This document shows, piece after piece, positions 3,076 to 31,166 of a stretch of 32,000 nucleotides of DNA. The position numbers and the translations under genes are program-made. The notes under the pieces were generated by a model. The model had not been told where the DNA came from. It made no database searches and saw only the letters and a program-made list of their open reading frames with translations. Every line of letters begins with the position of its first letter. The stretch's first letter is position 1. This DNA is from Planctomycetales bacterium. GTDB lineage: Bacteria > 4484-113 > JAFGCY01. Location: NCBI GenBank assembly GCA_022646745.1, contig CP060262.1, positions 3,930,001 to 3,962,000 on the forward strand, read 5' to 3'.

Positions 3076-3128
3076 GGATGGATTGTAAGGCAGGGACGCT
3101 TACTATGCACAATCGCTGTTCTACCGGC

Positions 3129-4292
3129 TTATTGTTGGCTTCCTGATGAATCGACCGGATCGAGGCAGACCAAGGTTTCCGGCTTGCGCTCATAGACGTA
3201 CAACCGGCCATCATAACCAGGCAGGTAGTTGCCATTGTGAGAAGCAGTCTTAGTCGAACTCCAGAGGAACCTGCCCTGTGGATCAATGCAGCTCCACCGA
3301 CTATCCCTGACGGTACTACCTGTTGTGAATCTCGATAAAAACATGCTGCGTCCAATACTCCAGTCAATTCGCCAGATAAAGACATATCCATCCGGACTGA
3401 TGTAATACGGCGAAGTGAACTCGTCGCCCATGTCATACACCCATTGTTCCTTGCCTTCCCGGTCATAGGCATGCAGGAACTGGCCACTGCCGACAACGCA
3501 CAGCGGGCTGCGTGGCTCCGTCAGCAGGCGTGGGAATTCCATGTCCAGAAGTGGAACCTGCCACTGCTCTTTGCCATCCCAATCAAGGCACAGCAGGTTT
3601 CCCTTATCGTCCAGCGTAACCAGCCTGTCACCCATGGACAGGGTGGAGAAGCAGCCCATGCGCTTCCAGAGCAGCTCTCCCTGCGGGCTGAGGCAATGCA
3701 ACGAGCCGGACTGGCAACCAAGAGCAATTCGCTTGTCGTCATCTGCCCTTAGCAGGTAGCTGCCTGCGTCGCCGTTGAAGCGCCAGGCAGGCTGCAGCGC
3801 AGAGTCATATGCCTGCACGAACTGGCTGTTGTAGAGGATGACCGGATTGCCATCTAGGGAGCATGCGTCAAAGCGGTCACTCATGTTTACTCGCGGGGGC
3901 CAGCCGGATCCTTCCGGAATGCCGAGTTCGACATATTCATTGCCAGCATTGCCATCCAGCACCCAGGTCCGTCCGTCAGCGGCGACGATGTAGCGTCCCT
4001 CACCGATCGGGACGAGCTGGTTGAGGCCCTGGCTCCTGAGGGCATCCGGCAGCAAAGGACTTCCGGATCCAGCGGAGCTGGCCTGCCCCAGGTCTACGCC
4101 GGAAAACTCACCAGCTGCTGAAACCTCTGCCATTCCCCTGCCGTGGTAAAGCCGCAGGCTGTTGTCAGGCAGCACTTCCATGCTGCCATACAACCTGGTC
4201 TCATATGTGTGCTGTACGTTCTCCTCTTCCGCACGGGACATATCGCAGGCGGACAGGATCATTGCGCAAAGCAGCAGGGCGATGATCCTCAC
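3129..4292 (-). CDS. PQQ-like beta-propeller repeat lipoprotein
   Basis: The track ORF is 3129..4325 with a TTG start. An internal GTG at 4292 overlaps the upstream stop as GTGA and follows GGAG. It yields a clean lipoprotein signal, (M)RIIALLLCAMILSAC. Repeats: AYDSALQPAWRF, HCLSPQGELLWKR, LCLDWDGKEQWQV, HAYDREGKEQWVY, CIDPQGRFLWSS. Confidence 0.75.
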   Translation of the reverse strand: MRIIALLLCAMILSACDMSRAEEENVQHTYETRLYGSMEVLPDNSLRLYHGRGMAEVSAAGEFSGVDLGQASSAGSGSPLLPDALRSQGLNQLVPIGEGRYIVAADGRTWVLDGNAGNEYVELGIPEGSGWPPRVNMSDRFDACSLDGNPVILYNSQFVQAYDSALQPAWRFNGDAGSYLLRADDDKRIALGCQSGSLHCLSPQGELLWKRMGCFSTLSMGDRLVTLDDKGNLLCLDWDGKEQWQVPLLDMEFPRLLTEPRSPLCVVGSGQFLHAYDREGKEQWVYDMGDEFTSPYYISPDGYVFIWRIDWSIGRSMFLSRFTTGSTVRDSRWSCIDPQGRFLWSSTKTASHNGNYLPGYDGRLYVYERKPETLVCLDPVDSSGSQQ

Positions 4293-5563
4293 TGGCCTGC
4301 TCCAATCACATAGCAGTCCAGCCAATCTCCATTGCTTATGTACACCCGGGAGCCGCTGACTGCCAGGCGAAACCTCACATTCCCGATGTACGGGATGCTG
4401 ATGCTGCCAAGTATCCGCTCATCACTGACGAGCTGTAACCTGCGGTCCGTGTTATAGCCGTAGAACCCCTGGCTTTTGAGGTACTGTGTCTTGCCGGGGA
4501 ACAGGAAGCTGTCCAGTGGCTTGATGCTGTCACCGAGTTTGCGCAGGCTGCGAGCAATGTTGTCAGCATCCTGGGTCATCAATACGAAGCCGGCGTCACA
4601 GGGCTTCACTTCGTCAATCCGGCTGCTGATCGGTGCATGCTCCGCAATCTGCCGGCCCTGCAGGTCAAGGATTGCCAGGCTGGAATCATTGAACAGCACG
4701 AGCAGGCGATTGCCGCCACAGAATGACTTATCAATCCTGACAGCGGTGGAGGGAATTGGAACCGTGAAGATCTGTGCGTCCTTGCCATCCATTAGCTGGA
4801 AGCGATCCTCACATCGCAGCAGGGGCACCTCTCCTTCAGTCAGTCCAACCAGCTGGACCAGCTCAGGAGCTGGTGCCAGTGAAGCATGCTCAACCGGCTT
4901 TGGCTCACTGAGCAATTCAGTGGACGGAACGGAGACGCTGCCATCCGGCCAGGCAGTTGTCATGTTGGCCCAGTTGATCACATAAGCCGCCTGCCCGTTG
5001 ATTGTCATCCGGGAGTGCAGGTGCTCGATCCACGGGTCTGCTCCAGGGTTGACCGTCCAGCACAATTCTCCATCAGTCCTCAGGCCGTACAGCATGGAGC
5101 CATTCTGGCTGTATAACTCGGCAGTTGGCGCAGTTGCCAGTTTCAGTGGGTCGCTGAATTCGCGGGACTGCTCATCGTATGACCACTGCCTGTTCCCGGC
5201 TGCATCCACTGCATACATCCGGCCGTCAGTCAGGCTGATGTAGCAGTTGCCATCCTGCTCATGGACGCAGTCCTTCAAGTAGACTCCTGACTCGCGAAAC
5301 GTCCAACGGACCTCTCCACTCTGTGGGTCGATCGAGATTACGCCTGCACTTATTCCACGGTTGTCCAGCAGGTACAGCCCGCCCTCATTTCCAGCCTGCA
5401 GATTCATGTACTCGTAAGCCAAGGGGATCCGCCAGGCGTGTGTGAATGGGGATTGCTCGCGTCGGCCCTGCCCCAGGTACAGCGCTCCCGCCAGCCACAG
5501 CAGCAGGCAGGCCAGCATCGTGCCGGCAATCAGCCTGTGCTCGCGGGATGTCGCTTGCTGCAT
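4289..5563 (-). CDS. membrane-anchored PQQ-like beta-propeller repeat protein
   Basis: The track ORF is 4289..5659 with a GTG start that overlaps the upstream gene by 73 nt. The in-frame ATG at 5563 gives MQQATSREHRLIAGTMLACLLLWLAGALYLG, a signal anchor, and removes the overlap. Repeats: ISIDPQSGEVRWTF, YAVDAAGNRQWSY, YGLRTDGELCWTV. The start is uncertain. Confidence 0.7.
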   Translation of the reverse strand: MQQATSREHRLIAGTMLACLLLWLAGALYLGQGRREQSPFTHAWRIPLAYEYMNLQAGNEGGLYLLDNRGISAGVISIDPQSGEVRWTFRESGVYLKDCVHEQDGNCYISLTDGRMYAVDAAGNRQWSYDEQSREFSDPLKLATAPTAELYSQNGSMLYGLRTDGELCWTVNPGADPWIEHLHSRMTINGQAAYVINWANMTTAWPDGSVSVPSTELLSEPKPVEHASLAPAPELVQLVGLTEGEVPLLRCEDRFQLMDGKDAQIFTVPIPSTAVRIDKSFCGGNRLLVLFNDSSLAILDLQGRQIAEHAPISSRIDEVKPCDAGFVLMTQDADNIARSLRKLGDSIKPLDSFLFPGKTQYLKSQGFYGYNTDRRLQLVSDERILGSISIPYIGNVRFRLAVSGSRVYISNGDWLDCYVIGAGQ

Positions 5564-5586
5564 CTGCTGCAAGCATAGCGCAGAAG

Positions 5587-5982
5587 CTAGTGTTCCTCCC
5601 AGACGATCAGCGCCGCATCCGCCAGGTCGTTGTCTGGCATTCCGAACAAGCGCCGCCACATCTGCTTGAACTCGGCCTCGTCATGCGGCCACTGTTCCAG
5701 CCACTCCCTGAATTGCGGCCACTGGAACAGCGTCGGGATGTCCCCCACCCCGCGGCAGTAGTCGTGGATCATCTCCCAGCAGATCGGCACCACCGTGCCC
5801 GGCTTCTGTGCCGTGCTGCCGCGCATGAAATTCACCAGCACGCCGCGCTCGGGCTTGTCCTCGCCGCGCACCATCGCCACCCCGGTGCCCCGGTCCACGG
5901 CGTAGTAATGCGGCTCGATGTATACGATCTGCACGGCTAGGATGATAGCCGAGGGCGGCTGCTGGGAACCTCTGGCTTGCAC
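5587..5982 (-). CDS. hypothetical small soluble protein (family not recognised), first gene of the minus-strand array
   Basis: 131-aa ORF with a GTG start and globular-looking composition (IVYIEPHYYAVDRGTG...PICWEMIHDYCRGVGDIPTLFQWPQFREWLEQW). The two ORFs overlapping it in other frames are Arg/Pro-rich junk. It has no signal peptide. The start codon is uncertain. Confidence 0.5.
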   Translation of the reverse strand: MQARGSQQPPSAIILAVQIVYIEPHYYAVDRGTGVAMVRGEDKPERGVLVNFMRGSTAQKPGTVVPICWEMIHDYCRGVGDIPTLFQWPQFREWLEQWPHDEAEFKQMWRRLFGMPDNDLADAALIVWEEH

Positions 5983-6050
5983 TCTGTAACGATTTGCCCA
6001 ACAATTGCATCAGGTAATCGGACAGTCCGTGGGAAGGAGGGGAACAGCAG

Positions 6051-7229
6051 ATGGATGGATTGCAGGAGCAGGCCGGTATCCGGCGAAAGGGCCTGACAAT
6101 TCTGCCGGCCTGGCTGCAGGACAACCCCCTGCCCGCAATCTGGCAGCTGACCCTGCTGAAGCGCAGGCGCAAGCGCCCGATCTTCCAGTTCTACTCCGCC
6201 GCTGTGCTGTTCTTCCAGGTGCTGGCGCTGCTCTGTGTCCCGGCCTACCTGATTGACTGGTACACCAATGCCTACTTCCTCACCGAGCTGCTGATGGCGG
6301 AATCGCTTCTCTCATTCTTCTGGCTGCTGCTGGAATTCACGTCATGCCTGAACTTCGCCGGCAACCTGATGCGCAGCGAGACTTCCTCCACCTTCCCGAT
6401 CATCGACGAGGCGCTGGCGGCCAGCAGCCTGCAGGACCGGGACTTCATCCTGGCAATGCTGCAGGCCAGCCTGCCGCGCCTGATGATTCCATCCGCGCTG
6501 CTCTGTCTCGCGGTGGTGATGCTATTCCAGACTGACTTCCTGCTGTATTCATACGGGTACAACGGGCTTGGCATAGCACAGTGGCTTTCACTGACAACAT
6601 TGTCAATGGTTTCGATGTCCGGCCTGCTGCTGCTGCACTTCGGCCTCGGGATGCAGCAGGAGAAACGCTTCGCCGCCAGCACCGGGACAGTGATGGCCGG
6701 ACTGGCCCAGCTGCTGACAATCGCCAGTTGGTTCCTGACCTACGACGAGGAGTGGATGACAGATTTCAGCAGCTACTGGCGCTACCAGTATTTCAACCCG
6801 CACCTGCTGGATCTCCAGAATTACTACTGCAATTCGCAGCTTGGGATGCTGCTGATCCAGTTCATGCTGGTGCTGCTGCTGCTGCACCTGGCAACGCACA
6901 ACGGATGGCTGCGCCGCCTGCTGCTGCTGGGCTGGCCGGCGCTCTGCGGCATCCTACTGACAACCTTCCTCCTCAGTCTGCAGTACATCGATCCAGAGAA
7001 TTTCTCCTACCTGACCGGACTAAGGTTCATCAGCCGCGCAGGCCAGCCGCTGTCCTTCGTCAACCTGGATGTGATATACATGCATTTTGTCGGTAACGAC
7101 ACCTCCGTGCAATCTGCCCATGTCGGCAGGCTGCAGGCATTGACGGTGCTGCTGCAGTTCGCATACGCGTTCACTTTCCTGCAGTTCGCCAGGAGAATGC
7201 TGTCCATCCATCGAAGGGGGACAGCATGA
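6051..7229 (+). CDS. polytopic membrane protein, divergent ABC-2 (NosY/GldF-type) permease-like, paralog 1
   Basis: 392-aa ORF with GGAGG at 6036-6040. About 7-8 hydrophobic spans. N-terminal amphipathic motif NPLPAIWQLTLLKRRRK starts at 6123. The loop after TM2, IIDEALAASSLQDRDFILAML, resembles the ExGTLExLLxxPhSxxEIxxGK loop of ABC-2 permeases. The stop overlaps the next start as ATGA (7226-7229). Confidence 0.6.
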   Translation: MDGLQEQAGIRRKGLTILPAWLQDNPLPAIWQLTLLKRRRKRPIFQFYSAAVLFFQVLALLCVPAYLIDWYTNAYFLTELLMAESLLSFFWLLLEFTSCLNFAGNLMRSETSSTFPIIDEALAASSLQDRDFILAMLQASLPRLMIPSALLCLAVVMLFQTDFLLYSYGYNGLGIAQWLSLTTLSMVSMSGLLLLHFGLGMQQEKRFAASTGTVMAGLAQLLTIASWFLTYDEEWMTDFSSYWRYQYFNPHLLDLQNYYCNSQLGMLLIQFMLVLLLLHLATHNGWLRRLLLLGWPALCGILLTTFLLSLQYIDPENFSYLTGLRFISRAGQPLSFVNLDVIYMHFVGNDTSVQSAHVGRLQALTVLLQFAYAFTFLQFARRMLSIHRRGTA

Positions 7230-8467
7230 TCAACAGGCTCATTGCTCATATCATGCGTATCACCCGCGGCTGGGTCACTGCCCTGCTGGATATCCGCCGC
7301 AATCCGTTGCCCGCGGCCTGGGGCATGTCCGAATCACGCGGCAATGCGGCCTACCTCAAGCGCTTCGCGATCGGGATGGGCCTGTACGGCATTGCCAGCT
7401 GGCTTGGGATCATCGCGAGCGCTAGTTACCTGACCGGTGACCAGCTGGCCAACAACAAACAGAGCTTCGTGAACAACTACTTCTTCGAGCTGGAGGACCT
7501 TGGCAACTGGCTGCTGCAGCAGCCCGGCGCTGCCTGGTGCCTGCTGCTGGCCCTGGCCTGGCTGCTTGTAACTTTCCGCAAGGCAATCACCACTTCGCTG
7601 GGCTTCCTCGACAGCGAACCACGCCAGCAGACGCATATCACCTATGACGACATGCTGGCCTGTTCGCAACTCAACGAGTACGAGGTGCTGCTCGGTGCGC
7701 TTTACTACTGTGTCCGCCTCGTGTTCCTGCCCCTGCTGGCATTCTCAATCTGTTGTGCCTATTCCACATACAGCTTCTTCGAGGCTGAGATTGCCGGCAA
7801 TTTCAACGGCGGACTCGCCGGCCTGCTGGCGCACATGTTCGCTGCAGTGCCACTGCTGTTCACCTCCGGCATGCTGGCGGCAATCGCATTGTTCCTGCTG
7901 ACAATCAGCCTGAGCCTGAGCTCCCGCCAGCGTACCGCTCCGCAGGTCGGCGGCTTCCTGCACACCACGGTGCAGTTCCTGCTGATCGTGCTGGCAGCCT
8001 ACCTGCTCTACTCGCAGTTCCAGTACTGGGGCTTCACGAATGACGCAGTGTTCCGCGATTTCGGCAACGTGATGTTCAGCATCAGCTTCCTGGTGACAAC
8101 CCTGATGCTCTACCTCGCCCGGCGGCTGAACTGGCTGCGCATGCTGCTGCAGCAGGGCTTCCCGGTGCTGCTTGGAGCCTTCCACCTGTTCTGTGCACTG
8201 CCGCTGGCCTATGCCTATACACTGGACAGCGACTGGCTGAACATGCTCAGCATTGCGGCTGACGGCCTGCGTCCACTGAGCCTGTCAGCCACGGCGCTAC
8301 AGGCCAGCTGGCTGCAGCAGATCCAACATCCCTACTGGGCGCGGGGCGACCGCGGCTTTGAGTACTACGCGATCGTCTCGCAGCTGATCGTGCAGTTGGC
8401 CTACCTCGCCCTGTTCGCTGAGTTTGCCCGTGACGCAGTGCGCCGTCGCAAGTGGGGCGTGATGTGA
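7226..8467 (+). CDS. polytopic membrane protein, ABC-2 permease-like, paralog 2
   Basis: 413-aa ORF with AAGGGGG 5 nt upstream of the ATG. Motif RRNPLPAAWGMSESRG starts at 7301. Loop: TYDDMLACSQLNEYEVLLGAL. Multiple hydrophobic spans. Confidence 0.6.
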   Translation: MINRLIAHIMRITRGWVTALLDIRRNPLPAAWGMSESRGNAAYLKRFAIGMGLYGIASWLGIIASASYLTGDQLANNKQSFVNNYFFELEDLGNWLLQQPGAAWCLLLALAWLLVTFRKAITTSLGFLDSEPRQQTHITYDDMLACSQLNEYEVLLGALYYCVRLVFLPLLAFSICCAYSTYSFFEAEIAGNFNGGLAGLLAHMFAAVPLLFTSGMLAAIALFLLTISLSLSSRQRTAPQVGGFLHTTVQFLLIVLAAYLLYSQFQYWGFTNDAVFRDFGNVMFSISFLVTTLMLYLARRLNWLRMLLQQGFPVLLGAFHLFCALPLAYAYTLDSDWLNMLSIAADGLRPLSLSATALQASWLQQIQHPYWARGDRGFEYYAIVSQLIVQLAYLALFAEFARDAVRRRKWGVM

Positions 8468-11100
8468 ATCAGGGCTGGATCGCTGCGTTTCGTGAGGCAT
8501 GGCATAGCCCGCTGCTGGAGCTCTGGCAGCGGCAGGATTCACGGCGAAGCACCCGTGGTTTCTGGCTGTCCAGCCCGGGACTGCTGCTGCTGGCCACTCC
8601 GCTTGTAATCCTGCTCTACTGGCTTCTGGTCCGCCAGCTGGGCATCCTTGCACATGCAGCTGGCAATGAAGGCATGAACCCGATCCTCGCATCGGCAGTA
8701 TTCTGGCTGGCAATCAATGCCAGCATCAAATACCTGGTCCTCATCGTTACCTTCATCTGCTGCGCCAGGCTGTATCGCGTGCTGGCGGACAGTGGCAGCC
8801 TGCTGGATGGAAGGAGCGGCAAGCGTGCACAGCTTGACAATGCAATGGCTGTCAGCATGCTGGATGACCGGCACCTGGTCGCCGCCCAGCACATCAGCAA
8901 CTTCCGCCTGCTGTATCCATGGATCGTCCTGCTGTCCCTTTTGCTGGGCCTGCACCGGGTTGTGTGCGCATTTGGCCACGCCGCTGTCGAAGCCCCGGAT
9001 GCCATCGGGCTGGCAGTCCGGCTTGTGCTTCATCCGCTTTGGTCCAGCCTGCTGGCGGCAGTGGCCCTGTTGATCCTCGGCAACTTCGCCATCGCGGCCG
9101 GCAGCGCAGCAGCAGCAAGCCGCCTGTTCCTGATTGGTGTTGCTGGGATGTCTGTCTGCCAGTTCGGCGTGGCGGCGACGCTCTACTATTTCGCAACTGA
9201 CAATTTCATTGGCATTGACGACTGCCTGGTCATGCTGCCAGCCCTGACGGGCCTGTTGCCCGGCCTGCTGCTGGTGTTCGTCGCCGGCTTCGCATCCAGA
9301 TCCGCAGGCTTGCTTCGCATTTTTTCCAGCGGGCTGGGTATGATCCCACTCGCCGGCATTGCCCTGGCGGGCCTGCTCTGTGACAGGATGTTCATGTTGA
9401 GTTTCAGCGACCAGAACATCGAGTCGGGCCTCTGCGTCTTCCAGGCCTGCGTGAACCTCCAGGCAATCTCGGTATTGCCTGTTCTGCCGGACACGCTCGA
9501 ATTCATGGGCCTGGTTGGCAATCCATATGGCAGCCCGGATGCAGTGTTCCCGGGGATGATGCTCAGCTTTCTCGTCGGGATGCAGCTCCTGCTACTGCGT
9601 GTGTCCTCCCATTTTGCTACCAGCTGCCTTGCTGAGCGCCGCGCACGACAGGAATCCGCCAATGAATCCCCCCGAAGCACTGCAAGCAAGGCAAGGAAGC
9701 AATCAGGGAATCCTCAACGAGTAGATGCAGTGTTCGCTGTCCTGCTCGTCGGTATTCCACTGCTGCTGACTATGGCAACGATGATCTCCGCCAGGTTGAT
9801 TCGTCCCCCATTGCTGGAGTCAAAAGATCCCTTCGAGCAATGGTTCCTGGACTGTTTCCAGCGCGGACAATCGCAGGCAGCATGGACCAGCGGCCTGCGC
9901 AACGGCACGATGAGCCTGCGGATGTCGGAGGTCCTTGGACAGGATTATAGCTACACTGACGACCTGATCGACCAGTCAATCCACTACCTGATGCAGGATG
10001 CTGCCGTCCGGCTCGAAACCGGCAATCCCGGCGATGTAGATCCCAGGCTGGCTCGCCTGTGCTTCATCGCCTATGAAACCAATCACTCCGTGGCTTATCC
10101 CCAGCTGACAGAGGAATGGAACAAGTTATATGAGCAGTATCCATGCCTGCAGCATGACCCCCAGGCGATTGCCATCATTGCCGAGATCAGATTGCAGAAG
10201 CTTGGCTGGGAGGATTTCGCGCCGGCGTACATGAATACGCGGCCGGCCTTTTCGTCAGATCCGAAATCAGCTTTCTACAGCCGCGACTGGATGCCGGAGG
10301 ATGACTACCAGGCACTGAAGCAGCTTTATGCCTCAATTGACGATTCGCTCGCAGACAATGCATTTCCATACCATCTGGAGGTCTGCCGCCGTTTGGCAAA
10401 TGACGACCTGAATGGGGCAATGGAAGTGATTCGTGGCAGCAGCAAAGCCCAGCTGGCAGACACGCGGCTCAATCTGCTCGCCGCGCTTGCGTTGGACGAA
10501 CCAGAGAAATTTGATCCATTGAGCCGATACTGCCTCTACTGGCCGGGGTTCAATCGGATACAGAGCATGAATAATCAATATTTCTCAGACTTCTTTTCAG
10601 CCAGTCGCCAGCTTTGTAAGGAAAGCCGTACAGACGACCTGCAACTCCTGCATGACTACATCCTCCGATTCAGCAAGCTGCTTGGGCCATATGATGCCAA
10701 CGAGATCCACCGAGCCATGCTGCAGGGGATTCCGGCAAACTACATTGGCATTGAAAGTAACCGTGCATTTAAGGATGCCAAGTCTGCCGCCAACAGCCTG
10801 CAGTACTCCGAGGCTCTATATGGTCCCAGTCCCTCAATCATCTATGGGAATAATCACACGGTGGGCATACAGTTGCTGGAAGGACATCTGGCATTTACCC
10901 GCCCTCATCCGGATTCCGTTGCGATGTATACATATTTCCTGGGACTGAATGATGAGAAGCTCGTACTGGAAGCAATGACTCAGGCTGAGCAAAGGGAATA
11001 TGAATCCATCATCTCACTTGACTGGACAGCACTGGATTGCTCACCGGCGGCGGACTCGACTGATTCCGCTGAGGAAGCAGGAGAATCGCAATCCCCTTAA
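8464..11100 (+). CDS. fusion protein: ABC-2 permease-like polytopic module (paralog 3) plus TM-anchored soluble helical module
   Basis: The track ORF starts at GTG 8452. The GTG at 8464 overlaps the upstream stop as GTGA and follows a GTGGGG SD-like run, so either start is possible. N-terminal motif HSPLLELWQRQDSRRSTRGFWLSSP starts at 8506. Loop: LDNAMAVSMLDDRHLVAAQ. From about 9715 there is a charged linker, then a TM segment VDAVFAVLLVGIPLLLTMATMI, then a soluble domain of roughly 400 aa. That domain is paralogous to the 12524 and 13948 products and shares the ending LDWTALD plus an acidic tail. Confidence 0.65.
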   Translation: MNQGWIAAFREAWHSPLLELWQRQDSRRSTRGFWLSSPGLLLLATPLVILLYWLLVRQLGILAHAAGNEGMNPILASAVFWLAINASIKYLVLIVTFICCARLYRVLADSGSLLDGRSGKRAQLDNAMAVSMLDDRHLVAAQHISNFRLLYPWIVLLSLLLGLHRVVCAFGHAAVEAPDAIGLAVRLVLHPLWSSLLAAVALLILGNFAIAAGSAAAASRLFLIGVAGMSVCQFGVAATLYYFATDNFIGIDDCLVMLPALTGLLPGLLLVFVAGFASRSAGLLRIFSSGLGMIPLAGIALAGLLCDRMFMLSFSDQNIESGLCVFQACVNLQAISVLPVLPDTLEFMGLVGNPYGSPDAVFPGMMLSFLVGMQLLLLRVSSHFATSCLAERRARQESANESPRSTASKARKQSGNPQRVDAVFAVLLVGIPLLLTMATMISARLIRPPLLESKDPFEQWFLDCFQRGQSQAAWTSGLRNGTMSLRMSEVLGQDYSYTDDLIDQSIHYLMQDAAVRLETGNPGDVDPRLARLCFIAYETNHSVAYPQLTEEWNKLYEQYPCLQHDPQAIAIIAEIRLQKLGWEDFAPAYMNTRPAFSSDPKSAFYSRDWMPEDDYQALKQLYASIDDSLADNAFPYHLEVCRRLANDDLNGAMEVIRGSSKAQLADTRLNLLAALALDEPEKFDPLSRYCLYWPGFNRIQSMNNQYFSDFFSASRQLCKESRTDDLQLLHDYILRFSKLLGPYDANEIHRAMLQGIPANYIGIESNRAFKDAKSAANSLQYSEALYGPSPSIIYGNNHTVGIQLLEGHLAFTRPHPDSVAMYTYFLGLNDEKLVLEAMTQAEQREYESIISLDWTALDCSPAADSTDSAEEAGESQSP

Positions 11101-11121
11101 CATGCTCGTCTGTGGGCGGGA

Positions 11122-12531
11122 TTGAATGCCGGGCAGCCCTCGGCTATGATCAAGGAAGAGTACCGGAGATGGCTGGAGCCATCGTATCCGGGTGGGAGCA
11201 GTATGGCGGTTCGACAACATGAACCTGAAGCAAAGCTGGACGGAGCTGTCCGGCCTGCTGCTGCGCCAGCAAAATTCCCCTCTTCACTGCGGCAGGAAAG
11301 TGGGAAAGCAGGCAGCTGGCTCGGAGCTGCCCTTGCCATCCGCCAGAATCCATTGCTGAATCTCTGGATCCTGCAGGAGAGGCGCAGGGCGGAATCCAGA
11401 AGCTTCTGGCTGTCAAACCCGGCGCTGCTGGCGGGAACATCAATTGTCAGCGTGCTCGCCTGCATCATACTGGTCCGGCAGTTACTGGCACTTGTCGAGG
11501 CCCGGACCGCCGGTGCAGTCAACCCGATGCCGGCCTCAGCCGCCTTCTGGACTGCAGTCAATGCGATCCTCTGGCTGGCGATAATCTACTTCGGCATGCT
11601 CTCCATCGGGCGGATCTTCCTCGCGATGCGCAATTCAGTCGCGCTACTGGAGACCGGCCAGGGCAACCAGCGCCTGCGGCTCGATGACAACCTCGTGATC
11701 ACGGAAATGGGCAGCCACCAGATCATCATGGCCCAGATCGCCGACAACCTGCGCCTGGTGCTGCCGGCCAACATCCCGCTGACCCTGTTGCTCGGGCTGC
11801 AGTCCCAGCTCAGCGGCTATGCAAGAATCCTTGACAACCTGCCAGGCGCGATGGACAGCCTGCAGAACCTGCTGCTGATTCCCCTGCTGTCGATAATCGG
11901 CAGCATCCTTGGCACTGTGCTCCTGGGCGCAATCCTGATCGGGGCCGGCCTGCTGGCTGACAGCACCCGCCTGCAGGTCGGGGCGGCGGTCGGTGTTTTA
12001 CTGATCCAGGCCTGGCTGTTGTTCCTGATGGCAACCGGCAGGGAGGTATTCAATCTAGGTATGGTTGAGGGCAGCGGCTGGGTGATCTCAGCGCTTGGGC
12101 TGTTCCCCCTGCTTGTAATGATGCTGCCGGTTTTCCTCGCTGGCTTCAGCCCCTTGTTTAGGCGTATCCTGGCAGGCGGACTGATCCTCTGGATGGGTTT
12201 TGCCCTGACCCTGCTGTATGGCATCTGCCTGTTGTCAGACCTGCGCATCTGGCTGGCAGAACCGAATGCTGTCGGGATGGGCCTGCAGGTCGGAAAGCAG
12301 AGCTTGCAGGTCTTCAGTTGCACGCCCCTGACAGGGATTGTCTACCAGCACTTGCAGGCGGTCATCCTCGGCAACCGGCAGGATCCTGCATTCTTCCTGA
12401 GTGTCTGGCAACCTGTCTACACCTATAGCGTCCCGCTGGCAGGATTCCTTCTGCAGGCAGCCTGCATCACCGGAGCCCTGCGCTTTGCGCTCTTGATGAT
12501 GGACAAACGGAGGCTTGGCAGCCATGACTGA
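11122..12531 (+). CDS. polytopic membrane protein, ABC-2 permease-like, paralog 4 (closest to paralog 3)
   Basis: 469-aa ORF from TTG 11122. Alternative ATG starts lie at 11146 and 11203 (GGGAG 4 nt upstream), so the start is uncertain. Motif IRQNPLLNLWILQERRRAESRSFWLSNP starts at 11347. FWLSNPALL...LVRQLLAL...AVNPMPASAAFWTAVNA aligns with FWLSSPGLL...LVRQLGIL...GMNPILASAVFWLAINA of paralog 3. Loop: LDDNLVITEMGSHQIIMAQI. Confidence 0.6.
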   Translation: MNAGQPSAMIKEEYRRWLEPSYPGGSSMAVRQHEPEAKLDGAVRPAAAPAKFPSSLRQESGKAGSWLGAALAIRQNPLLNLWILQERRRAESRSFWLSNPALLAGTSIVSVLACIILVRQLLALVEARTAGAVNPMPASAAFWTAVNAILWLAIIYFGMLSIGRIFLAMRNSVALLETGQGNQRLRLDDNLVITEMGSHQIIMAQIADNLRLVLPANIPLTLLLGLQSQLSGYARILDNLPGAMDSLQNLLLIPLLSIIGSILGTVLLGAILIGAGLLADSTRLQVGAAVGVLLIQAWLLFLMATGREVFNLGMVEGSGWVISALGLFPLLVMMLPVFLAGFSPLFRRILAGGLILWMGFALTLLYGICLLSDLRIWLAEPNAVGMGLQVGKQSLQVFSCTPLTGIVYQHLQAVILGNRQDPAFFLSVWQPVYTYSVPLAGFLLQAACITGALRFALLMMDKRRLGSHD

Positions 12532-13951
12532 CAACCATTCGGCCATGCCAGTCGAACACTCACCTGCACCTGGTCCTCCGCGGCGCTTCCTCAGGTTCGA
12601 CCGTGCACTCAGCCTGCTGCTGTTTGGGCTGCCCGCATTGCTTGCATTCACAGTCTCACTTACTGCAGTTACGGTGCCTGTTGTTCATTTCAACAGCGGT
12701 GATGAGTTTGCCGACTGGCTGTTCAATGCCGCCCTGCAGGCCCAGCATGATGCATGCTGGCAGGGTGTGAAGGCGAGCCGGGCTGCGGATAACTGGCTTC
12801 CGGAGAGCTACTATTTCAGGTCAAATGCATACTATCGGGAAAGCGTCCTCTTCGGCAACAAGCTGGCAGACGCGATCCAGCAGCAGCTGGATCTTGACCC
12901 GCATGATCCGCGGGTGATCTGGCTGGCTGCAGCTGGAATGCCCATTGATTATCGCGATTATGACAACAGCTTGCAGACAAAGTCGCGTTTCCTTCTCGAG
13001 CAGGATGCAGGGGGGATGCTGGACCGCCAGGGCCTGGAACTGCTGGCATATTTCATCAACCAGGTCGGACCGTTTGAACTGGTTGAACAGGAACGCTGGC
13101 GGGGACTTAACATTTCCTACTTCGACCTCGGCGATCCATCACAATCTGCCCTGACAGCCGAAGTCCGTGAGCAGGTGACCGATATTCTGCGGCGGGTTGA
13201 CAGTCTGCCTCCCGGCAATGCCCAGCACCTTGAACTGCGGTTCACTCAGCTGATGAACAACGACGACTTTGCCGAGGCCCTGGCACTGCTTGGCCGGTAT
13301 CCCGGGCTCGAGGCAGCGCCCAGTGACGTTGGCATGCTTGCCAGCCTCGGACTGCAGGAACCGGACGGCCTGGATGACATAACGCGTGCCCAGCTGCAGT
13401 TCTTCGGGCTTGCCAACTGGAACAACACCCTGCGCATGGACTACCAGAAAGTGCAACAGGCCAGCCGTGAGTTGCTGGCAAGCGGCAGCCTTGACAAGCT
13501 TCAGCAGCTCCACGAATTCCTCTGGAAACTCGGAGGGATGGGCAGCCCGGGCGACCAGCTTGGGCACACAGCTGAAATGCTGTCTGCCTTGCCACCATCT
13601 GTCCTGCATGACCCTGCCAACCAGGAATTCCGACTTTCACAGCAGGACATATATGCGCTGACCTCCAATTCGTGGACGGCTAATGACCCAGGCCTGCTGC
13701 AGCAGGCTGTCCTGCTCCTCGATTACCAACTCAGCGGAGAAAGGCTCGGTCTGTATGGACCGAACCCCATGTACCAGGATTACTACACTTCACAGCCAAC
13801 TCGTTCCAGGATAATCGAACAACTTGGCCCCAATGCTGCAGAACAGTTTGAGCGGATCCGCAATCTCGACTGGACATCCCTTGACCTCAGCTCAGCCCAG
13901 CCTGCTGACTTCGTTGATCCAGCTGAACAGGCCGCCTCGACTGATACATGA
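12524..13951 (+). CDS. single-pass membrane-anchored protein with large soluble (probably all-alpha) domain of unrecognised family, copy 2
   Basis: The track ORF starts at TTG 12515. ATG 12524 sits 10 nt after GGAGG (12509-12513) and overlaps the upstream stop by 8 nt. Anchor: FDRALSLLLFGLPALLAFTVSL. Then SGDEFADWLF...ELRFTQLMNNDDFAEALALL...QFERIRNLDWTSLD, which is colinear with the C-terminal half of the 8464 product. Confidence 0.6.
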   Translation: MTDNHSAMPVEHSPAPGPPRRFLRFDRALSLLLFGLPALLAFTVSLTAVTVPVVHFNSGDEFADWLFNAALQAQHDACWQGVKASRAADNWLPESYYFRSNAYYRESVLFGNKLADAIQQQLDLDPHDPRVIWLAAAGMPIDYRDYDNSLQTKSRFLLEQDAGGMLDRQGLELLAYFINQVGPFELVEQERWRGLNISYFDLGDPSQSALTAEVREQVTDILRRVDSLPPGNAQHLELRFTQLMNNDDFAEALALLGRYPGLEAAPSDVGMLASLGLQEPDGLDDITRAQLQFFGLANWNNTLRMDYQKVQQASRELLASGSLDKLQQLHEFLWKLGGMGSPGDQLGHTAEMLSALPPSVLHDPANQEFRLSQQDIYALTSNSWTANDPGLLQQAVLLLDYQLSGERLGLYGPNPMYQDYYTSQPTRSRIIEQLGPNAAEQFERIRNLDWTSLDLSSAQPADFVDPAEQAASTDT

Positions 13952-15366
13952 GACAATCAGCAACGGGGATGGATACAGCAGGCACACAACCTGGAGCGAG
14001 GAGCCGCCCACGCTGGCAGCTGATAGACCGCGCGCTGGATCTGCTGGTTGTCGGGCTGCCCCTGCTGCTGGCGCTTGCCTGTGTGATTGCCAGTTACGTC
14101 GTCAAGCCCTACCGCATGGATACCGGAGATCCCTACCTGAACTGGTATGGCAACCAGCTGATGGACAGTGCCGACCAGGTGCTGGCAACGGATCCGCTCC
14201 TGCCGGATTACTACAGCACAGGCGACTACTATCTGTTGCCTGATTTCCGCAAGCGCTTCGAGGAAGCACGAACCTCTTTCAGTGGCGATCCACGCTACTG
14301 GATGGAGTATGCCGATCTGACACGCGCCGAGATCTGGTTCGGAAGTGGTGACAACTATTCCGAACAGGACTCGGAAGCGGCTTATGAGGCAGTGATGCGT
14401 GAGGGCCTGTCCAGCCCCGGCGCCAGCCCTGAAATGTTCATCCCGCTTGAGTGCCGCCCGATCGAGACCTCAGTGCTGGCGGACGGTGTGACCCGCGGCA
14501 ACAAGGAAGGCCGACCGAATTTCCTCTGGAACCATCCGGAAGAAGTGACAGCAATGCTTGAGCAGGCCGGACGGCTGCCGGTGCAGGATACCGTCAGCCG
14601 CCTGCTGCAGGCAACATACTGGAGCTGCGGCGGGGAGTACGGGCGCGCCCGTGAACAGCTGCTGGCAATCCGGGACCAGCCGGGCCCTTCCCTGCCTGAC
14701 ATGAATGAGCTGATGATCAAGTCGGCAGCCAGACCAAACACGGCGGTCATGGCCAGCCGGGGCTGGTCCATGCAGTATCCGTCCAGCATTTACGTGGTGA
14801 ATTCTGACCTGCGCAGCGGACTGGACGAGCTGGCGGAACAGGCCTGGCTGGCCGGAGACTACGAGGTGATTGACATCCTGCGCCAGTCCATCATCGATGG
14901 CAGGGGCGCTTCCGGCACGATCCTCGGCCAGCTGATGACGACTGTCAACCTCGGCAAGGTTGACAGCCGCATCTACAAGGTCACTACCGACCCTGCTGAA
15001 CTGTCAATGATGCTAGAGCTGCGTGCCCGCAAGAATGTGTGGCGAGACAAGGTCCGCTCAACAATCGGGCGGGAACTCAGTCCCTGGGTGGTCGGACGCT
15101 GCACGCTGGAAGGTGCCCTCAGCGGTGGACGGGGCTTTCACAGCGGATACGGTATTGCCTATGGCCGTCTGCTTCAGGATGAGTATGCCGACCTGCTGGG
15201 CATCCAGCCCCAGTGGGATGCGGTTGCGAATTTCAGTTACAGCAAATTGGCCTTCCCAGACGGCTGGACACCATCTGAATCGGACCTGCGGATTGCCGAG
15301 GGAGAAATTGCCAACAATCCCGGCGAGCGCCTGTACCGCGAGGTTTCCGACGGTGAGCAACCGTGA
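13948..15366 (+). CDS. single-pass membrane-anchored protein, same soluble-domain family, copy 3 (more divergent)
   Basis: 472-aa ORF with an ATGA overlap to the upstream stop. Anchor IDRALDLLVVGLPLLLALACVI, then TGDPYLNWYGNQL. These match the anchor and first helix of copies 1 and 2. Confidence 0.55.
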   Translation: MRQSATGMDTAGTQPGARSRPRWQLIDRALDLLVVGLPLLLALACVIASYVVKPYRMDTGDPYLNWYGNQLMDSADQVLATDPLLPDYYSTGDYYLLPDFRKRFEEARTSFSGDPRYWMEYADLTRAEIWFGSGDNYSEQDSEAAYEAVMREGLSSPGASPEMFIPLECRPIETSVLADGVTRGNKEGRPNFLWNHPEEVTAMLEQAGRLPVQDTVSRLLQATYWSCGGEYGRAREQLLAIRDQPGPSLPDMNELMIKSAARPNTAVMASRGWSMQYPSSIYVVNSDLRSGLDELAEQAWLAGDYEVIDILRQSIIDGRGASGTILGQLMTTVNLGKVDSRIYKVTTDPAELSMMLELRARKNVWRDKVRSTIGRELSPWVVGRCTLEGALSGGRGFHSGYGIAYGRLLQDEYADLLGIQPQWDAVANFSYSKLAFPDGWTPSESDLRIAEGEIANNPGERLYREVSDGEQP

Positions 15367-16571
15367 GTGCCAACTGGACCAGCGCAATCCGTGGCCTGCG
15401 TGACAATCCCCTGCCGGCACTGTGGCAGCTGCAGGAACTGCGCCAGCACGGGCAGCGCAGCCGCTGGCTGTCCAGCCCCGGCTATATGCTGCTTGCCATC
15501 CTGGTCAGTGCGCTGGCCTGTTACCTGCTGCTGCTGCAACTCGGAATGGCAGGTGCGGTCTGGCAGGAGGGAGCGCACCCGGTGATTCGCCACAGCCTGC
15601 GCGGGATGGGCTTTGGCGTGTCCCTGGCTTTCACCGGAGCCATCTCCTTTCTACTGGCAATGGCCCGGCTGCACCATGGAATCCTGTTCTGCGGCAGCCT
15701 GCTGGCAATGCGGGACAGCCGCCGGCGCTGGGCCTTTGATGAGGTTGTGGCATCAACTGAGCTTGGCAACCGGGAGATCATCGCCGCGGCGATCTGGCAT
15801 TCGCTGCGCCGCGTGATGCCACCACTCGCACTCAGCCAACTGGTGTTTTCGGTGATGTCCGGCATCTGGGTGGCTGACATGCTGCATGACCACTCCCTCC
15901 CGGATGCAGCATGGCGCTGGCTGCTGCCCCTACTGTTCCTGCTGGGCATGCTGCTGCTGTCCACGCTGGCTGTCGCCACCCTTTGCGCCCTCTCGATCTC
16001 CACCAGCAGTCCTGACCAGCACCCGGCCCAGCCAATGCTGCTGGCAGCGAATGCCTACCCGCTGCAACTGCTGATGCTGGCGGCCCAGCTTCTGTTGCCG
16101 ATCTGGCGTCCAGATGAGTATTACACCGAAGCCCCATCTTTACTGGTGGTGAATCCACTGGATGTCGTCTCGCTGGGGTTCGGAATGCTGATGCCCGTCA
16201 TCATGGTCCTGCTGCTGGAACTGATGTGCCGGGCTGGCAACACCCGAAGTTATGCGGCCTTTGCCCTGCTGCCGGTGGTCGGCCTGCTGCTTGCCTTTGG
16301 CTGGGGCGTGATGTCAATTGTCTATGACGAGCTGCTGTCCTCCACATATCCGCTGGATGGACCCCTTTTCAGCCTCGCATCCAACTGGTGCATCTTCCCG
16401 TTGTACCTCAGCTATCCACTGCAGGACCTGGCCCGCAACGGTATTCCAGGCTATGCGATTCACTGGATGAGTCTCTGCCTGTTTCCCGTACATTTGCTCC
16501 TGCTCCTAGGTGCCCTTTACAAATTTGCGCAACGAGCAGCCGGGAACCTGGACCGCGAACTGCGGGTCTGA
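15363..16571 (+). CDS. polytopic membrane protein, ABC-2 permease-like, paralog 5
   Basis: 402-aa ORF with a GTGA overlap to the upstream stop. Motif LRDNPLPALWQLQELRQHGQRSRWLSSP starts at 15405. Loop: FDEVVASTELGNREIIAAAI. Multiple hydrophobic spans. Confidence 0.6.
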   Translation: MSANWTSAIRGLRDNPLPALWQLQELRQHGQRSRWLSSPGYMLLAILVSALACYLLLLQLGMAGAVWQEGAHPVIRHSLRGMGFGVSLAFTGAISFLLAMARLHHGILFCGSLLAMRDSRRRWAFDEVVASTELGNREIIAAAIWHSLRRVMPPLALSQLVFSVMSGIWVADMLHDHSLPDAAWRWLLPLLFLLGMLLLSTLAVATLCALSISTSSPDQHPAQPMLLAANAYPLQLLMLAAQLLLPIWRPDEYYTEAPSLLVVNPLDVVSLGFGMLMPVIMVLLLELMCRAGNTRSYAAFALLPVVGLLLAFGWGVMSIVYDELLSSTYPLDGPLFSLASNWCIFPLYLSYPLQDLARNGIPGYAIHWMSLCLFPVHLLLLLGALYKFAQRAAGNLDRELRV

Positions 16572-16663
16572 ACCAGCGCTTCTCCCGGGATTGTGGCGGG
16601 AACCACTGCTCCGGGTTAGAATCAAACGGCTGAAATCTGTTTCGATACTTGGGGGTATCGGAT

Positions 16664-19600
16664 ATGCGAACTGGTACTGCAGGCCATAAAAGAATGTGGC
16701 CAATTGTCGTGCTCGCCCTTGCATTGAGTGCCTGCGGCGGCAACATGGGTTCGGGCATTGTCCCTGGACCGGCACAGATAAGAAATGAAACCGCACCGGT
16801 CTATCGCAATGCGATTGGCGAATCCGAAATCGGCACACTGAATGACTGGCAGCGAGCGCTGCTTGCCGACCCAGGCTGGAATGAAGCCCCTGCTCCGGTT
16901 GAGCGGGATGGGTTTAACGCGCTGCCTGCTCCGAGCACTGAACTGCTATTGGAGCTGCTCCAGCAGCAGGCAGTTGCAGGCATAGATCAAGCTGGATTCG
17001 TGCGTGGCACTTCCGCGCTTGACCCGGTTCCGGTCGGCGCGTACAAGCCTGGCGATGTTGATGTTAATGGCATTCCCGCTTTCGGCTGCAATGCCGACCC
17101 GGCAATGATCGACATTTACCACATTGAGGATGTGATTGGCAATTACAGCCTGGATGCTGATCTGCAATTGCAGTCACCAGTTGGTTACGTTATGTATGGC
17201 GTACCTACAGTCAACCATTTCAACAAGCATGGAGACTCAGCCTCGATTCCGGCTGCCATTTCACAGGTGCTGGCCCAGCAGGACGACCAGTCCCAGAACA
17301 TTGCGATCAGCAGCATTGCTTATCTCGCTGCGCAGGATTTCTCCGTCTCACCCGGTGAGGGCAGTGGCCCTGGAGGCCCGAATGACTGCGGCCTGGCGGC
17401 ATACAGTATCCGCAATGCCTACTGGATGAGCTGGAATGAGAAATCCTTCGCTCTGCCTTCGGGCCAGACCACTGCGCTATTCAACATTTTGCCTGGTCCG
17501 TTGGATGAAGCACAGACCGGGCTAACCAACCCCATCACTTCCACCACGGCGGGCCAGCAGCCCTTCCTGTTCGGTTCCTGGATCGAGCATTATGGCAAGT
17601 CCTACATCGTCGGCATAGAATCTGCCAACAGCGGTTGCCAGATGTTCGATGACATTGCCAACACCGAATGGCGCCACAGGGTGATCGGTGGCGACCAGCC
17701 CTACCCGAACATCCTGCACAACCCGCTGTACGGCATCCTTGCGGAACGCTGGCAGCAGTCAGCCATTCCGGATACGGAGGAATGGAACAGCCAGCTCGGC
17801 TGGCCCGTGGCCCGTCCCTTTGCCTACAACAATGGAGCGCAGCTGCTCAGTGCGGACGGCCCCTACTATGCATTTGGACAGTTCTTCGAGCGGGGATTCA
17901 TCTGGTGGCTGGACTACGACCAGCAGGCCAATCCGACAGCAAGCGACCGGGCAATCCTCTACACTTTCGATGGCAGCAACACATTCTGCGATGGCACGTT
18001 TACGCGCAGCTACCCTTACCTGCATTACAACAATCAAGCAAGTGCCCCGCTTGCCGCTGACCTGCTGGTGGACCAGTATCTCGCGGGTGGCTCCGACTGG
18101 CGCCAGATCAGCCAGCAGCCTGATGGCCGCCTGCTGCGGGTTCCCTGGACTGACGAGGGAGCCAGCCAGCGCAGTGCCACTGTCCGCGCCCTTGCCAACC
18201 CCAGTGGAGGGGTGACCATCAACGGTGACGACATCGGCCATCCGGAATGGGGCAAGGGCCTGTACCGCAGCTGCACATGGCTGTGGCAGGATGGCACTGT
18301 CACCCCTGCCGGCATGGATTACGACCCGGCGCAGTTTGACATGCAGCACACCTACCTTGGCGACGGAGCTGGCATTGAAGCCATCCGCCGCATCAGGGCG
18401 CAGGTGGTGGATGCCGACGGCAACATCGCCTATGTGGACAGCCTGCCGCTGCAGATCGGCGACGGCAGCCCGGGGGCCGCCCCGGCACTGAGCGTGCTGC
18501 GGGCTGACAACGGCATGTTCCCGGATGGCTACGAAGCCCTGATTGATGATCTCGGTGAACTCGGCCTGCCCTTCAGCACCCGCAGCTGGGAAGCGGGTAT
18601 CGAACAGCAACTCGCAGACGAGGGCTGCCAGCTGGCAATCTGGTACGACGGCGGACCGGGCAGCCAGGCTGAACTTGGAAACACACAGGCCGGCTGGACC
18701 GCTGGGGAAAGGGACTCACTGATCGGCCTGCTGGAGAAGGGCATTGACGTGCTGCTGCTCAGCCAGGATGTCGCTGACAACCCGGACCCCAACCCGGGAA
18801 ACTCATGGACAGACCGCTTCGGTATGCAGCTGCTGCCCGGCGGCCAGTCCGGCACCGGCCTGCAGGGTGCATGGGGGCAGTTGCCCGGTGGCCGGATTGC
18901 CGATTTCGGCGGCGGATGGCTTCCCTCGTCCGCCCAGTACATGTCTGCCGCTTCACTGGCTTCGCTCGAGGCGATCTGTGGCGCCGTGGAACGCGGCTCC
19001 GCCGATGATGGTACCCAGCCGATGCTTGTGTCAGTCGACCCCGCCCTGCCCGTCTGCGGCATTGGCAGCGCCACCAACTGGCCGGGAGCCAGCCCCGCAT
19101 TCACTGCGGGCAGCTTCCTGTCTTCAACATCCACAGGTCCGGCCCAGGCCCTGCTGAGCTGGGGCAGCAGCGCAGCTCCGCATTCCATTGATGGCAACCT
19201 GCCTGACCCGGTCATCGCCGATGGCAATGCGCACCTGTGGGTCTATGGCCTCAGCTGGGCAGCCAGCTCTCCCGTAGGCTACCAGGGCAGCGATCGCGTG
19301 CCCGTTGCCAGGAGCAGGATGCTTCAGAATATCCTGAGCTGGCTGGACAATGATTCCCGCTACTTTGACCCGCTGCGACCACGTGGCTATTCAGGTGAGC
19401 CGGAAATCCTCTCGGTCACGCCATACCTGATCCAGTCAGACGGGCAGATCACTCCCGGCTCGACTTCACATACTGGAGTTGACTATCCGGACCCGAGCGG
19501 CAGCGATGTGCTGCGCAGCAGCCCCAACCTGCCGGATGAGAAGCACCTCGTTGTCAGTCCGGAGCATGACTCGGATGAGGACGGCATCAATGCCAATGAC

Positions 19601-20770: not shown

Positions 20771-20812
20771 AATCATATCAGTTTCACGGGATCTCGTGAA
20801 ACTGATATGATT
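20771..20812. terminator. perfect 18-bp AT-rich inverted repeat (hairpin) 10 nt after the stop of lipoprotein A; possible terminator or attenuator without a canonical U-tract
   Basis: aatcatatcagtttcacg (20771-20788), loop ggatct, cgtgaaactgatatgatt (20795-20812). The arms are exact reverse complements. The hairpin is followed by aaaggtactt rather than a T-run. Confidence 0.4.
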
Positions 20813-20849: not shown

Positions 20850-21205
20850 GTTTCCATAGCTTCGGCTGCGCTCTGGGAGCCAGCTGGAAGACACGCGCAA
20901 TTGAGGAAGTAGGAATTGCTTGATCAGCATTCGAACTTTCGGATCACAGGGGCTGCTGTGAACCTCGCAGTCCTTTGCGCGCATATTTACTACCCCGGCA
21001 CCGCATGCAATTGCCGTGCTGCGACACATGCTTCCCAGTACTCCGGCCGTCCTGGACCGGTCGAGATAATCCGGCTGAAACATACTGCATGAGGAGGTAT
21101 CTGATGTCCAGTCGTGGCAGCAGTGTTGCCACTCGAAACCCTGCCTACCGGGCGGGTCAATTGCGCTTATTAATTATTTCCATACCAACATCTATAGGAG
21201 TTATC

Positions 21206-28752: not shown

Positions 28753-28762
28753 GGAGCGACGG

Positions 28763-31003: not shown

Positions 31004-31166
31004 ACCCGTTTGACTATTGGCCTTCACGTACGCTTTACCCAATCCACATATTCCCATTTTGCTGAATTCCCTGTATTGATGCGGGCTGAGGCTGCATCTT
31101 CACATACTTCTGTTACACTTCACACAGTGCCGACACATAGTGTGGCGGACGAAGGAGACCATCTAC

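Follow-up and report, generated by a model that had tools for sequence, protein, structure and literature searches.

In the Gld and Nos systems (GldF+GldG+GldA and NosY+NosD+NosF), a permease of the ATP-binding cassette (ABC) group ABC-2 is accompanied by a periplasmic accessory partner; the ABC-2 membrane domain has six transmembrane helices, and its partner ATPase is normally encoded in the same operon. An anchored periplasmic tetratricopeptide repeat (TPR) domain that binds a protein substrate works with a polytopic protein in the pairing of CcmF with CcmI/CcmH in cytochrome c maturation and in Wzy_C/GT-C proteins fused to TPR domains. Here, we describe an operon in a 32-kb stretch of the genome of a Planctomycetales bacterium (contig CP060262.1, positions 3,930,001 to 3,962,000; the window). 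Seven closely packed open reading frames (ORFs) on the forward (+) strand, at positions 6051-16571 in the ORF listing and its translations, encode five copies of a polytopic membrane protein family (P; g1, g2, the N-terminal half of g3, g4, and g7) and three copies of an anchored-module family (A; the C-terminal half of g3, g5, and g6). P and A are two undescribed families of homologs that lack a Pfam or NCBIfam model, and they are encoded as coupled neighbors or as one polypeptide, in the arrangements P-A, P-A-A, and P fused to A. This cassette occurs without a dedicated ATPase and lies outside the Pfam and NCBIfam families and the solved folds. In the source lineage, duplication has expanded it to five P and three A copies within a strain-variable island that also contains a giant lipoprotein gene.

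The arrangement of seven coupled, back-to-back genes described in a previous sequence-only reading of the window was reproduced, including the coordinates and junctions. The first gene, g1 (6051-7229), encodes the most divergent P copy, of 392 amino acids (aa), as judged by hydropathy, hhalign, and a neighbor-joining (NJ) distance tree, and meets g2 (7226-8467), the archetypal P copy (413 aa; AlphaFold2 and conservation mapping), at an ATGA at 7226. The P-A fusion gene g3 (8452-11100, 882 aa; BLASTP, orthologs, and hydropathy) begins at GTG 8452 or at a GTGA at 8464. A 21-nucleotide (nt) gap precedes TTG 11122, the first of three candidate starts of the P gene g4 (11122-12531; BLASTP and orthologs). 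The start of this gene is uncertain: the other candidates are ATG 11146 and ATG 11203, where the orthologs begin (55% identical in the related locus L011 and 86% in L012), and in the longest form, homology starts only at residue 63. The A gene g5 (12515-13951; hydropathy and hhalign) begins at TTG 12515 or ATG 12524, followed through an ATGA at 13948 by the A gene g6 (13948-15366; hhalign) and through a GTGA at 15363 by the P gene g7 (15363-16571, 402 aa; BLASTP, all-helical in AlphaFold2). All junctions were read from the sequence; promoter and terminator scans gave nothing better than chance level. Compared with a relative that is 87% identical, the ratio of nonsynonymous to synonymous substitutions (dN/dS) is 0.13 to 0.25, so the operon genes are real and evolve under purifying selection.

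By hydropathy, g1, g2, the N-terminal half of g3, g4, and g7 are polytopic, and g5, g6, and the C-terminal half of g3 each consist of one N-terminal transmembrane segment followed by ∼430 soluble residues. Within g3, the P domain (∼8452-9650) is followed by a basic cytoplasmic linker, a transmembrane anchor (∼9730-9786), and an A-type periplasmic module that extends to 11100. Because the cytoplasmic C-terminal tail of P leads through the basic linker into the A anchor, the A domain is placed outside, and the fusion is topologically consistent. The NCBI annotation of the contig instead lists g3 as a 679-aa product starting near 9061, along with a 164-aa antisense ORF (8539-9033, − strand). We consider the short form wrong and the antisense ORF spurious, given that the upstream part (8452-9060) is homologous to g4 and g7 and that the full-length orthologs in L011, L012, and L013 are 870 to 882 aa long.

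The paralogy of the five membrane products, already proposed from the sequence, was borne out by both pairwise and profile comparisons. BLASTP detected the N-terminal half of g3 with g4 (9e-22) and with g7 (8e-13), g4 with g7 (2e-14), and g1 with g7 (4e-7) and with g2 (7e-5). Profile-profile alignment of ortholog-enriched P groups with hhalign yielded probabilities of 98.3 to 99.9% over 261 to 378 columns, that is, full-length homology that includes distant members (99.7% for the g1 group versus the g2/archetype group). Distant P members are 27 to 33% identical to g2. In the NJ tree, g1 and g2 group with the distant "archetype" members, and the N-terminal half of g3, g4, and g7 form a lineage-specific clade. 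An exhaustive hmmsearch of 1.84 billion representatives with a profile of the five paralogs identified 107 P relatives at an E value of ≤1e-3 (63 at ≤1e-10), counted as representatives at 50% identity; most are ∼400 aa long, and a few are 767 to 882 aa. Word-indexed homolog searches were nearly blind for this family, returning 4 or 5 matches each, all of them close orthologs. So far, the P family has been found only in uncultivated bacteria, labeled "Planctomycetales bacterium," "bacterium," or candidate phylum 4484-113.

Comparison with family and structure databases yielded no relationship to a described protein. The products of g1 to g7 had no match in Pfam and NCBIfam even at an E value of ≤1, and neither an ABC2_membrane domain nor any other meaningful domain was detected by Pfam at ≤0.01 in the 83 P relatives scanned (of the 107). 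A sequence-profile search of the PDB with the P family returned just a PTS IIC protein, through a hydrophobic match that we regard as spurious, and PADLOC at ≤0.1 recorded no match for g1 to g7. Because Pfam and NCBIfam contain no model for either P or A, the finding was rated as outside the known kinds. An AlphaFold2 model of g2 built from a 65-sequence alignment (pLDDT, 86; pTM, 0.90) consists of an N-terminal amphipathic helix and eight long transmembrane helices. Foldseek comparison of this model with 350,542 PDB chains produced nothing significant (best E value, 0.41; TM score, ≤0.22), and no match was obtained among viral structures. The model of g7, made with 8 sequences (pLDDT, 69; pTM, 0.74), is all-helical as well, but Foldseek on this 8-sequence model was uninformative. 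An internal repeat of 4+4 helices was sought in P and was not detected. Exosortases, CPBP/Abi proteases, UbiA-type enzymes, and GT-C enzymes were weighed as identities for P and dismissed: P matches none of them in Pfam or by fold, and it lacks the conserved His, Cys, or Asp-rich motifs that characterize them.

Four motifs are conserved across P: W..A.R..DNPL..W..RR on the N-terminal amphipathic helix (W..A.R..(D/R)NPL..W in g2); ALGxL....LDDxLAxxxLxxxExLxG in the loop between transmembrane helices 2 and 3 ((L/Y)DDxLAxxxL in g2); LARRxxxLR in the turn between helices 6 and 7; and AxFARDAVxRR(KWG) in the C-terminal tail (AEFARDAVRRRKWG in g2). The first two include the motifs pointed out in the sequence-only reading, which are real and fall in the best-conserved columns of the wider family, although g1 and g3 match the patterns as then written only approximately. 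When conservation across the 65 sequences was mapped on the model (N terminus inside, eight transmembrane helices), every family-wide motif was located on the predicted cytoplasmic side, and the periplasmic loops were variable.

The same motifs had led to the suggestion that the five proteins resemble NosY/GldF-like ABC-2 permeases. Accordingly stated, the rival explanation is that P is a highly divergent ABC-2 (NosY/GldF/YbhR-like) permease and A a periplasmic accessory like GldG or NosD, served by an ATPase encoded elsewhere in the genome. P was compared with a set of Escherichia coli proteins comprising YadH, YbhR, YbhS, YhhJ, and the membrane domain of RbbA. With all filters off, the P family hidden Markov model (HMM) scored −4.8 to −9.8 bits on YadH, YbhR, and YbhS. 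The hhalign comparison with YbhR, YbhS, YhhJ, and the RbbA membrane domain produced a single local alignment of 26 columns (27% identity; P value = 0.046) with a probability of 1.15%, versus 98 to 99.9% for true comparisons within the P family. That one alignment does fall on the motif that follows the second transmembrane helix, pairing LDDmLAvSxLSxxEiLxG with GTxxxLL-vxPxTxxExxLxK, or, with the residues before it, R....T..lDDmLAvS.Ls..Eil.G with RExExGT...Ll-v.P.T..e..l.K; in both families the motif is cytoplasmic and lies right after helix 2 (the ABC-2 motif type compared was ExExGTxExLLxxPxSxxExxxGK). In addition, the start of YbhS, SNPILSWRRVRAL..KE.R, recalls DNPLxxxWxxxExRR, and the P motifs are all cytoplasmic, as for an ATPase-docking surface. 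The likeness is thus real as a pattern, but it does not amount to homology by the statistical and structural tests run, and we treat it as a lead rather than as evidence of membership.

Other features of P also speak against this explanation. The predicted helices number eight, not six; no ABC2_membrane profile was matched by the 7 operon proteins or the 83 relatives; and Foldseek found no ABC transporter membrane domain in the PDB. As the sequence-only reading had noted, the window encodes no recognizable nucleotide-binding protein: translation of the 32 kb in all six frames shows neither a G..G.GK[ST] nor an LSGGQ-like motif. There is no ABC_tran gene in the 10 kb upstream of the window, and no ABC_tran gene, Walker A motif, or signature motif adjoins P in the fetched loci with family members, which serve as independent contexts. 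The sole nearby exceptions are in L021, where the ATPase of a separate amino acid importer is encoded at a distance of ∼7 kb, and in L015, which has an FlhF-like GTPase. These negative results cover the window and the fetched neighborhoods; an ATPase could be encoded elsewhere in the genome. The identification of P as an ABC-2 permease is not supported, and P is placed outside the known kinds with a small residual chance that it is an extreme ABC-2 variant. The complete alternative, with A as its accessory and a remote ATPase, is in our judgment unlikely.

The three anchored modules are likewise paralogous, as had been claimed. BLASTP matched the C-terminal half of g3 with g5 (5e-16), and hhalign aligned the g6 group with the g5/g3 C-terminal group (95.1%) and with distant A proteins (98.3%; E value, 1e-14; 415 columns); the g5/g3 C-terminal group also aligned with distant A proteins (96.6%; E value, 7e-10). 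The subtype nearest to the partners found in distant genomes is g6. A proteins are 350 to 520 aa long and share a basic N terminus, one transmembrane anchor, a juxtamembrane (S/T)GDxxLxx(W/Y), a central APxEAxPxYYxAxxxxxxGDYxxAxxxLxxGN, and a C-terminal (F/L)D(Y/W)(T/S)xL. In g5, for example, a short basic N terminus and a single anchor precede a predicted periplasmic helical domain of ∼430 aa. A matches no Pfam family, and no GldG-type or NosD-type domain was found in it. TPR_19 was detected in 2 of 13 A members (E value, 1e-4; 23 bits, under the cutoff of 25), and the A profile had weak matches in the PDB to Tom70 (0.008), SRP72 (0.02), and designed TPRs (0.02 to 1), all at profile positions ∼186 to 267. 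These weak TPR matches come from the central element of A. The A domain is predicted from sequence to be periplasmic, helical, and weakly TPR-like.

The distribution of conservation invites another explanation, in which P-A is a transmembrane sensor whose periplasmic repeat domain senses a ligand and whose P cytoplasmic face relays the signal to a regulator. Conservation that is limited to the cytoplasmic face, with variable periplasmic loops and A domains, would fit such a role. Yet no kinase, sigma or anti-sigma factor, cyclase, or DNA-binding gene recurs beside the family in the neighborhoods examined, and multicopy arrays are unusual for sensors; of the explanations considered, we find this one the least probable.

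In distant genomes, the minimal recurrent unit consists of one P with either a single A or a pair of A, or of P and A fused in one protein. P followed by A occurs in L017, L019, L025, and L021; the L021 pair, on a contig of 2.4 Mb, is flanked by a GH2-like gene and a tRNA methyltransferase gene. P followed by two A occurs in L015 and L024, in the same order as g4-g5-g6. Fusions are represented by g3 and its orthologs and by four proteins of 767 to 801 aa (P0052, P0063, P0080, and P0106). Large secreted proteins are encoded near the cassette in the window, L021, and L026, and the single P-A pairs of L017 and L021 occur without a giant lipoprotein. A related-loci search with a narrow alignment matched two genomes. 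A literature search found nothing relevant on the lineage or on ATPase-less ABC-2/TPR systems.

Comparison with L011 (GCA_041395205.1) showed that the operon lies in a sharply bounded variable segment. The flanks are 86 to 95% identical at the protein level (NUDIX/NrtR, 94%; phosphonate-binding protein, 93%; a 115-aa gene product, 95%; C-terminal half of the giant lipoprotein LipoB, 89%), whereas the proteins encoded by g3 to g7 are 32 to 55% identical and a beta-propeller protein is 25% identical. By blastn against L011, the edges are sharp at 6047 and 20811, so the variable segment comprises g1 to g7 plus the lipoprotein gene lipoA. The gene neighborhood comparison that the sequence-only reading had called for showed that the core order g3-g4-g5-g6-g7 (fusion, P, A, A, P) is retained in L011 despite this divergence. 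Gene content differs as well: one more P+A pair is present in L012 and L013, for a total of 6 P and 4 A; L011 has 3 P and 3 A and lacks g1, g2, and lipoA; L019 has 1 P and 1 A; and L018 has 0 P and 0 A, with a lipoB ortholog (73% identical) ∼1 kb from the 115-aa gene. The P and A copies are old paralogs under purifying selection, the number of which differs between relatives.

These data bear on the proposal that the five P and three A form one fixed hetero-oligomeric platform serving the downstream giant lipoproteins. All seven genes are tightly translationally coupled, lipoA (16649-20761, + strand) is on the same strand and within the same variable segment with no convincing terminator ahead of it, and the g3-to-g7 order persists in L011, as would be expected of such a platform. 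Nevertheless, the same locus carries 0 to 6 P genes in relatives, and distant genomes have single P-A pairs; variable copy number together with these single pairs argues against one fixed five-subunit platform and weakens the idea that five subunits are obligatory. L018 has lost the array but retains lipoB, and L011 has lost lipoA but retains the array, which argues against strict dedication to either lipoprotein. We therefore regard a single fixed platform as improbable.

The island would also be compatible with an array of polymorphic specificity or immunity-type determinants whose diversity among strains is maintained, serving, for example, in protection from membrane-targeting toxins, self-recognition, or evasion of phages that use the surface lipoproteins. 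The interior is far more diverged than the flanks, with sharp edges; presence/absence and copy number are polymorphic; and the neighboring beta-propeller lipoproteins and the giant lipoprotein vary likewise. Conversely, no toxin, defense, or mobile-element signature was found by PADLOC or Pfam, the dN/dS values indicate ordinary purifying selection, and single P-A pairs are located among housekeeping genes in distant genomes. An immunity role accordingly strikes us as rather improbable, too.

The left edge of the island, which is conserved, is marked by the 115-aa gene (5587-5934, − strand). This gene is transcribed divergently from the P/A operon and is the first of the beta-propeller lipoprotein array; in L018 and L019, PQQ_2 genes come after it as well. 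Positions 5557-6047 are 88% identical to L011 by blastn, and the 115-aa protein is 80 to 95% identical across relatives whose P proteins are 31 to 41% identical. The product is soluble, and has no match in Pfam, NCBIfam, or PADLOC, and a homolog search yielded only four clusters. We asked whether it might be the cytoplasmic partner that the cassette contacts and dismissed this, because L018 retains the gene but lacks the array and because the gene heads a beta-propeller operon on the opposite strand. At the right edge, a perfect 18-bp inverted repeat with a 6-nt loop (20771-20812; arms, AATCATATCAGTTTCACG and CGTGAAACTGATATGATT) directly follows the lipoA stop codon, and homology to L011 restarts at 20811. 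This repeat is a possible terminator of the operon. It also overlaps promoter-like hexamers on both strands.

Two giant lipoproteins are encoded downstream. In the longest ORFs, lipoA, which starts 78 to 122 nt past g7, encodes 1370 aa with the lipobox LALSAC, and lipoB (20975-26227, + strand) encodes 1750 aa with the lipobox VAASC. The two are paralogous and have no family or PDB sequence match. lipoA follows g7 in L001 to L005 and L012, is absent from L011 and L018, and is present only in the closest relatives; lipoB is conserved (84% nucleotide identity with L011 and 73% aa identity with L018), and its L011 ortholog is split into two ORFs by a frameshift or an assembly error. Two long ORFs antisense to lipoB (21443-22924, − strand, 493 aa; 22934-26110, − strand, 1058 aa) are rich in Val, Gly, Ala, and Asp and resemble the shadow ORFs expected in a GC-rich gene more than real genes.

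On the other side of the operon is an array of four BamB/PQQ_2-like beta-propeller (lipo)protein paralogs (698-5659, − strand). Upstream of the window (L007), there are at least four more paralogs, and after them comes a gene for an M6 peptidase that carries Big_7 domains. The array is strongly diverged between close relatives (25% identity, versus 93% for the flanks), and in L011, an insertion sequence-type transposase gene (rve + HTH_38; 77-1045, − strand) is inserted among the beta-propeller genes, so the variable region there is also a target of mobile elements. Near the other end of the window, in the product of an ORF at 28463-30058 (+ strand), a long acidic stretch of low complexity precedes a YacP-like NYN domain (Pfam E value, 1e-5); the C-terminal part of the product is 86% identical in L011, and translation probably starts close to the Met at residue 101. 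Another gene, at 31140-31850 (+ strand), encodes a basic protein of 236 aa that is extremely rich in Lys and Ala (e.g., KKAKAAKAKKQKAAKAAK), a composition like that of histone H1 or nucleoid proteins.

The explanation that we favor is that the operon is a tandemly amplified, undescribed, two-component inner membrane cassette that may act as an ATP-independent envelope device with diversified specificities. We hold this overall picture at about even strength, and we place far less confidence in any specific biochemical role. Because P and A are fused in g3 and translationally coupled elsewhere, they probably act as a complex. Each P-A set may function independently of ATP: the periplasmic repeat domain of A might bind a large exported protein or another envelope ligand, and P might couple ligand binding to a conserved cytoplasmic contact, either a conserved partner or a gate. 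The paralogs would then supply differing specificities rather than the parts of one fixed hetero-oligomer. These steps are tentative. A bolder version, in which P represents a new fold and, with its periplasmic repeat partner, forms an ATP-independent inner membrane machine whose strain-specific specificities codiversify with the giant surface lipoproteins and the beta-propeller arrays, is possible but rather doubtful.

Several considerations weigh against the cassette as an ATP-independent device. Its function is proposed with low confidence, as neither family has a characterized homolog. Conservation confined to the cytoplasmic face is equally expected of an ABC-type membrane domain that docks on an ATPase, and the motif after helix 2 of P bears a weak likeness to that of ABC-2 proteins. 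The topology of P, with the N terminus inside and the motifs cytoplasmic, is itself predicted, from hydropathy, the positive-inside rule, and the structural model, and the TPR character of A comes from sub-threshold matches. Furthermore, several loci (the window, L021, and L026) hint at a link to large exported proteins, but this link is not systematic, and the variation of the island could have causes that are unrelated to the function of the cassette.

If the P-A cassette is self-contained, it would combine a new membrane protein fold with ATPase-free coupling of a periplasmic binding domain to the cytoplasm; if it is a machine of the bolder kind, it would represent a novel kind of system for sorting, assembly, or recognition in the envelope. 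The amplification of the cassette in a sharply bounded variable island beside giant lipoproteins is a natural experiment on the diversification of the bacterial surface. Confinement of the family to uncultivated bacteria limits immediate experimental access. For annotation, the motif-level likeness of P to ABC-2 permeases should not be propagated.

Set beside the described systems, the cassette resembles ABC-2 permeases with accessory partners in having a polytopic protein whose N-terminal helix is amphipathic and basic, a conserved cytoplasmic motif with a weakly similar residue pattern after the second transmembrane helix, and an adjoining anchored periplasmic partner. It differs from them in that P has no HMM, profile-profile, or fold match to ABC-2 proteins, has eight rather than six transmembrane helices, and lacks an ATPase gene in the neighborhoods examined, and in that A, unlike GldG and NosD, matches no Pfam family. 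With CcmF/CcmI and the Wzy_C/GT-C-TPR proteins, the cassette shares the architecture, and only the architecture, of a multispan protein associated with or fused to a single-pass protein with a periplasmic helical-repeat domain. Similarity to these proteins was found neither in sequence nor in fold. The conserved residues of P are cytoplasmic, and none forms a His, Cys, or periplasmic acidic motif suggestive of catalysis; the TPR matches of A are below threshold. At the level of the locus, the sharp transition from conserved flanks to a strongly diverged interior and the polymorphism of gene content are similar to those of O-antigen and capsule loci; in place of the glycosyltransferase, sugar-nucleotide, and flippase genes of such loci, the island contains P/A cassettes and giant lipoproteins.

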